Positions 61,874 through 64,000 of a stretch of DNA of 64,000 bases are shown here, piece by piece. Position numbers and translations under genes: made by a program. Every line of letters starts with the position of its first letter. Within the stretch, counting starts at the first letter, position 1. Location: assembly GCF_058153355.1 (NCBI RefSeq), contig NZ_CM177019.1; one strand, given 5' to 3'. Below the pieces are notes generated by a model. It was not told the DNA's origin, ran no database searches, and was given only the letters and a program-made list of their open reading frames with translations.

Positions 61874-64000
61874 ATGGCTTCGACAAATGCGCAGCAAATA
61901 AAAAATAATGATCAAAACTCTTTATGCGGTCTGGGTGACAAAATACGCCGCCTGGCCGCCGGAGTTTGTTTATTCACACAAATTTTTTTCCCCGTCATCG
62001 CGACGGCACAAAATGTGGTACACGCTAAACCCCAGATGACAGTTTCATCTCCTCCCCCTCTTACAGAAAATAAAACCGTACCTTACACGCTTGGCGCGCT
62101 GGAATCAGCGCAAAGTGTTGCTGACCGGTTCGGTATTTCACTGGAAGAGCTTCGTCGTCTTAATCAGTTTCGTACTTTTGCTCGCGGCTTTGATAACGTG
62201 CGTCAGGGTGAAGAACTGGATGTTCCGGCAACAACCTCGCAGAGAAGTCATGAGCTACAAAATGCCGTATCACCGGCGAATGCCGAAAACACACTGGAGA
62301 ATCAAATAGCCAGTACTTCACAGCGAGTTGGCACTCTGCTTTCACAAGGTATGAATAGTGAGCAGGCGAGCAGCATGGCGCGTGGTTGGGCGTCTTCAGA
62401 AGCCTCTGGCACGATGACTGATTGGTTAAATAACTTTGGCACCGCGAAAATCTCTCTGGGCGTGGATGAAGATTTTAGCCTGAAAAATTCGGAATTCGAC
62501 TTCCTGCATCCATGGTATGACACACCCGATTATCTGCTCTTCAGCCAGCATACTCTTCACCGAACGGACGATCGCACCCAGATCAACACCGGTTTAGGCT
62601 GGCGTTACTTCACCCCCAGTTGGATGTCTGGCATCAACCTGTTTTTTGATCACGACCTAAGCCGCTATCACTCCCGCGCGGGACTTGGCGCAGAATACTG
62701 GCGTGACTATCTGAAGTTGAGCAGCAATGCTTATATCGGCCTGACCGGCTGGCGTAGCGCACCAGAATTGGATAATGACTACGAAGCCCGCCCGGCTAAC
62801 GGCTGGGATTTACGCGCAGAAGGCTGGTTACCTGCCTGGCCGCATCTGGGTGGAAAACTGGTCTTTGAACAATACTATGGCGATGAAGTGGCGCTGTTTG
62901 ACAAGAATGATCGTCAAAGTAATCCCCATGCTATTACCGCAGGCCTCAACTATACCCCCTTCCCGCTTCTGACTCTCAGTGCAGAACAGCGTCAGGGGAA
63001 ACAAGGTGAAAATGACTCACGGTTTGCCGTTGATCTGACCTGGCAACCCAGCAGCTCAATGCAGAAACAGCTTAACCCGGACGAAGTGGCCGGACGGCGC
63101 AGTCTGGCCGGTAGTCGTTATGACCTGATTGATCGCAACAACAACATCGTTCTGGAATACCGCAAGAAAGAGCTTATCCGCCTGAGTCTGCTGGACCCAG
63201 TGAAAGGGAAATCGGGAGAAATAAAATCGCTGGTTTCCTCGCTACAGACCAAATATGCCCTGAAAGGCTATAAAATCGACGCTGCTGCGCTGGAATCTGC
63301 TGGAGGAAAAGTCAGCACTTCCGGAAAAGATATCACGGTCACGCTGCCTGGTTACCGCTTCACTAACACCCCGGAAACCGATAATACGTGGCCGATAGAC
63401 GTTACCGCTGAGGATGTAAAAGGTAATCTGTCACATCGTGAGCAAAGCATGGTCGTCATCCAGGCTCCGGCATTAAGCCAGAAAGATTCTCTGTTATCCG
63501 TTAATCCGCTAACCCTGGCAGCAGATAAAAAATCGACTACCACATTGACTGTGACTGCGCACGATTCCGACGGTACCCCGGTTCCGGGGCTGGCACTGCA
63601 AACCCGCAGTGAAGGTGTTCAGGATATCACTCTGTCTGACTGGACAGATAACGGGGATGGTAGCTACACACAGATGCTGACTGCAGGAACGACTTCAGGT
63701 TCAGTAACACTGACACCGCAACTTAACGGTGAGAGTGCGGTAAAAGAATCCATCGTCGTTAATATCGTCCCTGTTGTCTCATCCCGCGACCATTCTTCAA
63801 TATCCATAGATAACATATTGTATTATGCCGGAGACGACATCAAAGTCAGGGTAGAACTGAAAGACGACAAAAATAAACCGGTTGAATATCAAGAAGACGC
63901 GTTGGTAAAAGCCGTCACTGTCGAGAACAGCAAACCTGGCGCCACGGTTGTCTGGCACGAAGAGCATCCGGGCGTTTATGCAGCGAATTATCCGGCCCAT
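61874..64000 (+). CDS. Intimin/invasin-family inverse autotransporter adhesin (SinH-like), 5' partial: LysM, beta-barrel, start of Ig-like repeats; continues beyond window end
   Basis: Manual translation from ATG at 61874 is open to the window end; LysM motif (YTLGALESAQSVADRFGISLEELRRLNQF) followed by aromatic-rich beta-barrel region and Big-like segments; absent from ORF track because no stop is reached. Confidence 0.65.
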   Translation, partial: MASTNAQQIKNNDQNSLCGLGDKIRRLAAGVCLFTQIFFPVIATAQNVVHAKPQMTVSSPPPLTENKTVPYTLGALESAQSVADRFGISLEELRRLNQFRTFARGFDNVRQGEELDVPATTSQRSHELQNAVSPANAENTLENQIASTSQRVGTLLSQGMNSEQASSMARGWASSEASGTMTDWLNNFGTAKISLGVDEDFSLKNSEFDFLHPWYDTPDYLLFSQHTLHRTDDRTQINTGLGWRYFTPSWMSGINLFFDHDLSRYHSRAGLGAEYWRDYLKLSSNAYIGLTGWRSAPELDNDYEARPANGWDLRAEGWLPAWPHLGGKLVFEQYYGDEVALFDKNDRQSNPHAITAGLNYTPFPLLTLSAEQRQGKQGENDSRFAVDLTWQPSSSMQKQLNPDEVAGRRSLAGSRYDLIDRNNNIVLEYRKKELIRLSLLDPVKGKSGEIKSLVSSLQTKYALKGYKIDAAALESAGGKVSTSGKDITVTLPGYRFTNTPETDNTWPIDVTAEDVKGNLSHREQSMVVIQAPALSQKDSLLSVNPLTLAADKKSTTTLTVTAHDSDGTPVPGLALQTRSEGVQDITLSDWTDNGDGSYTQMLTAGTTSGSVTLTPQLNGESAVKESIVVNIVPVVSSRDHSSISIDNILYYAGDDIKVRVELKDDKNKPVEYQEDALVKAVTVENSKPGATVVWHEEHPGVYAANYPAH

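Follow-up and report, generated by a model that had tools for sequence, protein, structure and literature searches.

The 5′ part of iatD, an accessory inverse autotransporter gene of Escherichia coli, at the end of a 64-kb window

Described inverse autotransporters and the IatD locus

Seven inverse autotransporter gene families, among them iatD, have been catalogued in E. coli. The survey that did so (Goh et al. 2019, mSphere, PMC6714894) covered 126 genomes of the species and introduced the names iatA to iatD. For functional characterization, iatD was cloned from strain SMS-3-5 (EcSMS35_4876, 5241 bp), and immunofluorescence demonstrated surface display of its product. IPTG-driven overexpression in a K-12 flu mutant resulted in biofilm formation, with neither autoaggregation nor ECM binding. 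The authors assigned to IatD a LysM domain, a beta-barrel, Big1 repeats, and a C-type lectin cap, and reported >98% conservation among the 7 iatD genes in their sample (PMC6714894). Literature searches for iatD retrieved this 2019 study and one mention in a review.

We focus here on an open frame on the plus strand at the end of the window (the whole stretch of 64,000 nucleotides that was analyzed), which is almost certainly the 5′ 2.1 kb of iatD, or 40% of its length. This accessory E. coli gene encodes a surface adhesin of type Ve and lies between yjiJ and kptA within a haplotype of ~10.5 kb. The feature is thus already known and named, and its family has a functional study (PMC6714894); the preliminary description, made from the sequence of the window, mentioned neither the name nor the paper.

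The closest described protein is SMS-3-5 IatD (WP_000168882.1), whose gene likewise occupies the yjiJ–kptA locus and which shares the architecture of probable signal peptide, LysM domain, IAT barrel, and Big_1 rod, together with the lectin-like cap expected from the relatives; its gene differs in that the window allele is ~93% identical at the nucleotide level, and the protein measures 1746 aa in the close relatives of the window. YeeJ and IatC display the same domain order as the window frame, and YeeJ-named proteins are 72–73% identical across the first 709 residues, but these paralogues differ in chromosomal locus, passenger sequence, and passenger length (2359 and 2934 aa in SMS-3-5; PMC6714894). 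Yersinia invasin and the intimin of EPEC/EHEC possess a homologous barrel (4E1T and 4E1S, respectively) and an Ig-like rod; a cap resembling invasin D4–D5 is present in the full-length relative of the window protein, and the LysM domain is shared with intimin. In contrast, the rod of IatD is much longer, a LEE/Tir context is lacking, and there is no evidence of integrin binding.

Identity and domain architecture of the window frame

The frame was first described as an intimin/invasin-like inverse autotransporter with a LysM motif, a beta-barrel-like region, and Ig-like repeats, which starts at 61874, follows yjiJ, and runs off the window end. The start is exact: ATG at 61874 opens 709 codons that continue to base 64000 and past the window end with no stop, and it coincides with the RefSeq iatD start in strain MB50. 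The frame has a GC content of 50%, against 48.5% for the window; all minus-strand ORFs within it are ≤73 aa; a repeat scan detected no DNA tandem repeats within the iatD part; and an Rfam scan of 55000–64000 gave no match. The features of the region, all on the plus strand, are as follows.

61664–61873, plus strand: yjiJ–iatD intergenic region (GC 36%; hairpin; sigma-70-like match; Shine-Dalgarno-like motif)
61874–64000, plus strand: iatD codons 1–709 of an expected 1746 (open frame; RefSeq annotation; amino acid identity to MB50, SMS-3-5, and L014)
61874–62008, plus strand: probable extended Sec signal peptide, residues 1–45 (hydropathy and A-x-A motif)
62069–62227, plus strand: periplasmic LysM domain, residues ~66–118 (Pfam matches of homologues, AlphaFold2 model, Foldseek, phmmer)
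62318–63142, plus strand: IAT beta-barrel (translocator), residues 149–423 (PF11924; 4E1T; 4E1S)
63173–63460, plus strand: first Ig-like domain, residues ~434–529 (all-beta AlphaFold2 model with pLDDT >90; Foldseek match to 6TQD, E 3e-12)
63482–63766, plus strand: second Ig-like domain (Big_1/Invasin_D3), residues 537–631 (PF09134, PF02369, FdeC 4E9L)
63797–64000, plus strand: third Ig-like domain, residues ~642–736, cut at residue 709 (AlphaFold2 model)

A megablast search of 5426 complete E. coli genomes matched 61600–64000 at 99.0–99.7% identity in ~10 genomes, and RefSeq labels the matched features "yjiJ: MFS transporter" and "iatD: inverse autotransporter IatD". In MB50, iatD measures 5241 bp and encodes 1746 aa, with yjiJ on one side and a convergent kptA on the other; 708 of the 709 residues encoded in the window are identical to this protein (RefSeq "IatD", WP_152931432.1). 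Identity to SMS-3-5 IatD amounts to 663/709 residues (93.5%), and the SMS-3-5 locus, when fetched, likewise placed iatD between yjiJ and kptA. While yjiJ lies directly upstream of the frame in the window, the kptA side of the locus is beyond it; that position was read from MB50, SMS-3-5, and L014 (the closest relative found, described below), in each of which kptA is directly downstream.

The gene yjiJ, encoding an MFS transporter, ends at 61663, leaving a spacer of 210 bp before iatD. A terminator scan placed a terminator-like hairpin at 61726–61747, 3′ of yjiJ, and a promoter scan returned one weak sigma-70-like match in the spacer, though the number of matches from both scans was no higher than in shuffled sequence. 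The promoter of iatD is presumably located within 61664–61873, and the AT-richness of this spacer may point to silencing of the gene. A Shine-Dalgarno-like GGAAGG motif occupies the positions 8–13 bases 5′ of the iatD ATG.

The N-terminus of the protein displays, in order, a polar extension, the motif KIRR, a hydrophobic core at residues 27–43, and ATA|QN. Hydropathy peaks at ~1.9–2.0 across residues 27–45, with an A-x-A motif at 43–45. Residues 1–45 are accordingly predicted, from hydropathy alone, as a probable extended Sec signal peptide, and the A-x-A motif would place its cleavage site after ATA.

The LysM domain carries an insertion (FRTFARGFD) ahead of its last strand. The window sequence alone scored 15 bits against the Pfam LysM cutoff of 20.9, below threshold. 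When the periplasmic segment was aligned with 20 homologues and the resulting 21 sequences were searched against PF01476, all 21 N-termini matched (E ≤0.1, best 6e-7). An AlphaFold2 model of the region displays a beta-alpha-alpha-beta core with a pLDDT of 86–90 (~88), and Foldseek matches to this model were almost all LysM domains, including that of intimin (2MPW); the TM-scores, normalized to isolated LysM domains, reached 0.7–0.8, and the E-values were weak (≥0.007), as expected for a fold of only 50 residues. By phmmer, a weak match (E 0.005) to the LysM domain of Thermus thermophilus P60 (4UZ2) was retrieved; the other matches from direct PDB sequence searching with the N-terminus were largely to designed helical repeat proteins and spurious. 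Through its homologues and the modeled fold, the frame therefore shares the periplasmic LysM domain of the large type Ve members intimin, YeeJ, IatC, and IatD, and the LysM motif first noted is sustained despite the subthreshold score.

For the translocator, Pfam IAT_beta (PF11924) matched residues 149–423 with E 1.4e-106 and covered profile positions 3–279 of 279. PDB sequence searching retrieved two experimentally solved barrels, 4E1T of invasin with E 1.2e-80 and 4E1S of intimin with E 1.3e-67. The barrel is located N-terminal to the passenger, as in type Ve proteins generally.

Within the window, sequence searches identified a single Ig-like domain, Big_1/Invasin_D3 at residues 537–631 (PF09134, E 5.6e-19; PF02369, E 1.3e-8; FdeC 4E9L, E 5e-31), and assigned no family to residues 431–536 and 632–709. 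An AlphaFold2 model of residues 425–760, for which the part past residue 709 was supplied by the L014 sequence, reached a mean pLDDT of 89 and displayed three consecutive all-beta domains at ~434–529, 537–632, and 642–736. Foldseek best matches for this model were FdeC (E 3e-17), intimin D00–D0 (E 3e-12), and invasin. The first of these domains, which has no Pfam match, occupies the position of D00 in intimin, and the third is cut by the window end. The repeats of the preliminary description thus correspond to one Ig-like domain by Pfam and three by structure prediction, and domain searches together with structure models bore out its LysM, barrel, and Big-type assignments.

Continuation past the window, export, and function

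The course of the gene beyond base 64000 was examined in relatives. A 705-aa pentapeptide-repeat protein encoded upstream in the window was found in exact form on a single public contig, L014 (GCA_043012465.1). Over the final 16.8 kb of the window, this contig is 99.97% identical at the nucleotide level and differs by 4 mismatches and 1 gap. Ten other contigs carrying the exact YjiJ protein are 98–99.6% identical. The first 709 residues of L014 IatD are identical to those encoded in the window; the gene is intact (5241 bp, 1746 aa) and ends before kptA, and a premature stop soon after the window end is absent from this nearest relative. An internal profile identified eight more Big_1-like repeats at residues 752–1539 of L014 IatD. 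By Pfam, the tandem Big_1/Invasin_D3 passenger comprises one domain in the window and 8–9 in the full-length relative. The C-terminal 346 aa of L014 IatD align to invasin 1CWV (D3–D5, through D5) with E 3.7e-18.

By homology to intimin and invasin, and from what is established about type Ve secretion, a route to the cell surface can be proposed. Sec would export IatD across the inner membrane via the extended signal peptide, and BAM would insert the IAT beta-barrel into the outer membrane. The LysM domain would remain periplasmic and bind peptidoglycan, anchoring the protein, while the C-terminal Ig-like rod would pass out through the barrel in a hairpin conformation. The passenger would then form a rod of ~12 Ig-like domains with an invasin D4–D5-like, C-type-lectin-like tip held far from the cell surface. 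Export of the passenger to the surface is suggested by the SMS-3-5 orthologue (PMC6714894), and the phenotype reported for that protein would likewise apply to the window allele by transfer from the orthologue.

The main role of IatD may instead be receptor-specific binding to host cells by the lectin-like tip, comparable to the invasin–integrin and intimin–Tir interactions, with biofilm formation a by-product of overexpression. Goh et al. raised this possibility (PMC6714894), and the alignment of the C-terminus with invasin D3–D5 speaks for it. Furthermore, the C-terminus is the region most divergent between the two allele groups of IatD considered below: relatives of the window allele group share ~90% amino acid identity with full-length SMS-3-5 IatD but 78–86% in the C-terminal 350 aa, a pattern that diversifying pressure on a ligand-binding tip could produce. 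Against it, Goh et al. did not detect ECM-protein binding, IatD is not known to have a receptor, neither a T3SS nor a Tir-like partner is encoded beside iatD, and the tip itself lies beyond the window. We regard a host receptor as the less probable account of the main role.

The frame could also belong to a pseudogene in the window strain, inactivated by an insertion sequence or a mutation past base 64000 and yielding no functional adhesin. Such inactivation is frequent in close relatives: of the 12 closest complete genomes, 4 carry an iatD disrupted by an IS element, namely MB52 and LR-58-1 (both IS3 family), MFDS1019527 (IS2), and N96 (IS66). This point is modestly new. In the remaining 8 of these genomes, however, iatD is annotated as intact, as it is in L014, whose few differences from the window are given above. 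The insertion site of MB52 corresponds to approximately window position 63383, which is uninterrupted in the window sequence. A pseudogene is therefore distinctly unlikely, and the relatives suggest that iatD continues intact past base 64000 in the window strain.

Paralogues, allele group, and the surrounding haplotype

When scored against NCBIfam models, the window protein gave its best result with Ve_IatC_Nterm (NF040978), at 1058 bits against a cutoff of 2400; the intimin equivalog (NF033627) scored 298 bits against 1400, and the SinH and YchO models scored far below their cutoffs. Because these scores fall so far short, the protein is a member of the family yet none of IatC, intimin, SinH, or YchO. 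Although the top rank of the IatC model and the 72–73% identity of YeeJ-named proteins could be taken to favor another paralogue (YeeJ, IatC, EaeX/Air, or intimin), that reading has a next to negligible chance and was ruled out by identity, which is 93.5–99.9% for IatD proteins against ≤73% for YeeJ-named proteins and ~63% for EaeX/Air, and by synteny, yjiJ–kptA being the iatD locus in SMS-3-5.

In K-12 MG1655, yjiJ and kptA are convergent, 12 bp apart, and iatD is absent, in line with the earlier remark that no such adhesin is known at this position in K-12. The megablast query was covered to at least 80% in 637 of the 5426 complete genomes (11.7%), which puts iatD in ~1 genome in 8. At the nucleotide level, 14 of these 5426 genomes fall in the allele group of the window (≥95% identity) and 625 in the SMS-3-5 type (90–95%). 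The window iatD is, by this measure, a member of a divergent minority allele group, which lies outside the sample of Goh et al. given the >98% conservation reported there.

That the frame may mark a further accessory segment, as also proposed at the outset, was substantiated by a divergent block beginning upstream of iatD, at approximately window position 56835. The block extends to the kptA stop, measures ~10.5 kb (~3.3 kb of it past the window), and replaces ~2.2 kb of K-12. It contains a pentapeptide-repeat gene, divergent alleles of yjiK and yjiJ, and iatD. Both yjiK (59576–60418) and yjiJ (60485–61663) are ~81% identical to K-12 at the nucleotide level (83% and 89%, respectively, at the amino acid level), a divergence common to the window, MB50, and SMS-3-5, whereas the flanks (yjiL/yjiM on one side and kptA onward on the other) are 95–97% identical to K-12. 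YjiK belongs to the SdiA-regulated family. Because yjiK and yjiJ diverge to this extent while both flanks do not, the pentapeptide-repeat gene, yjiK/yjiJ, and iatD appear to behave as one alternative haplotype, a replaced block rather than a clean insertion. A match of at least 90% to the block was found in 640 genomes and iatD in 639–640, figures that agree as totals and do not represent a genome-by-genome match. It resembles an ancient introgression, or a polymorphism maintained over a long time, more than a simple insertion.

Several further observations were made on the block and its surroundings. The pentapeptide-repeat gene (57198–59315, plus strand, 705 aa) lies upstream of yjiK, is absent from K-12, and has a GC content of 35%. 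It contains a perfect 9-bp × 7.9 tandem repeat at 58685–58755 that encodes ATS-ATS-ATS, and close relatives encode products of 685 to 705 aa, a variation in length suggestive of repeat slippage. At the other end, 130 bp close behind iatD, between its stop and kptA (L014 19966–20095), are 72% identical to K-12 intergenic sequence near rpnD/yjiR and may constitute a dispersed repeat at the right-hand junction of the block.

Elsewhere in the window, positions 1–25000 carry prophage-like genes beside rsmC (tyrosine integrase, DNA methyltransferase, DUF968, yfdQ, and a Rha regulator), and no complete genome covers more than ~72% of this part in one place. Positions 25001–50000 contain opgB, tsr, btsT, and a type I restriction-modification (hsdRMS) region. 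The best genomes cover 92% of this part, split into three pieces, which marks the immigration control region as a further variable segment.

The main consequence of the identification is correct annotation of the frame as iatD, and its importance beyond that is small. Modestly new are the divergent minority allele, which the original study did not sample, and its linkage to a block of yjiK/yjiJ and a pentapeptide-repeat gene. It is conceivable, though we consider it a long shot, that this minority allele, with a tip ~80% identical to that of the characterized protein and set in a haplotype of ~10.5 kb, amounts to more than sequence variation, provided that divergence of the tip alters ligand specificity or that the four linked genes cooperate. 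If so, it would represent a small polymorphism of an adhesion module in E. coli that has so far gone undescribed.
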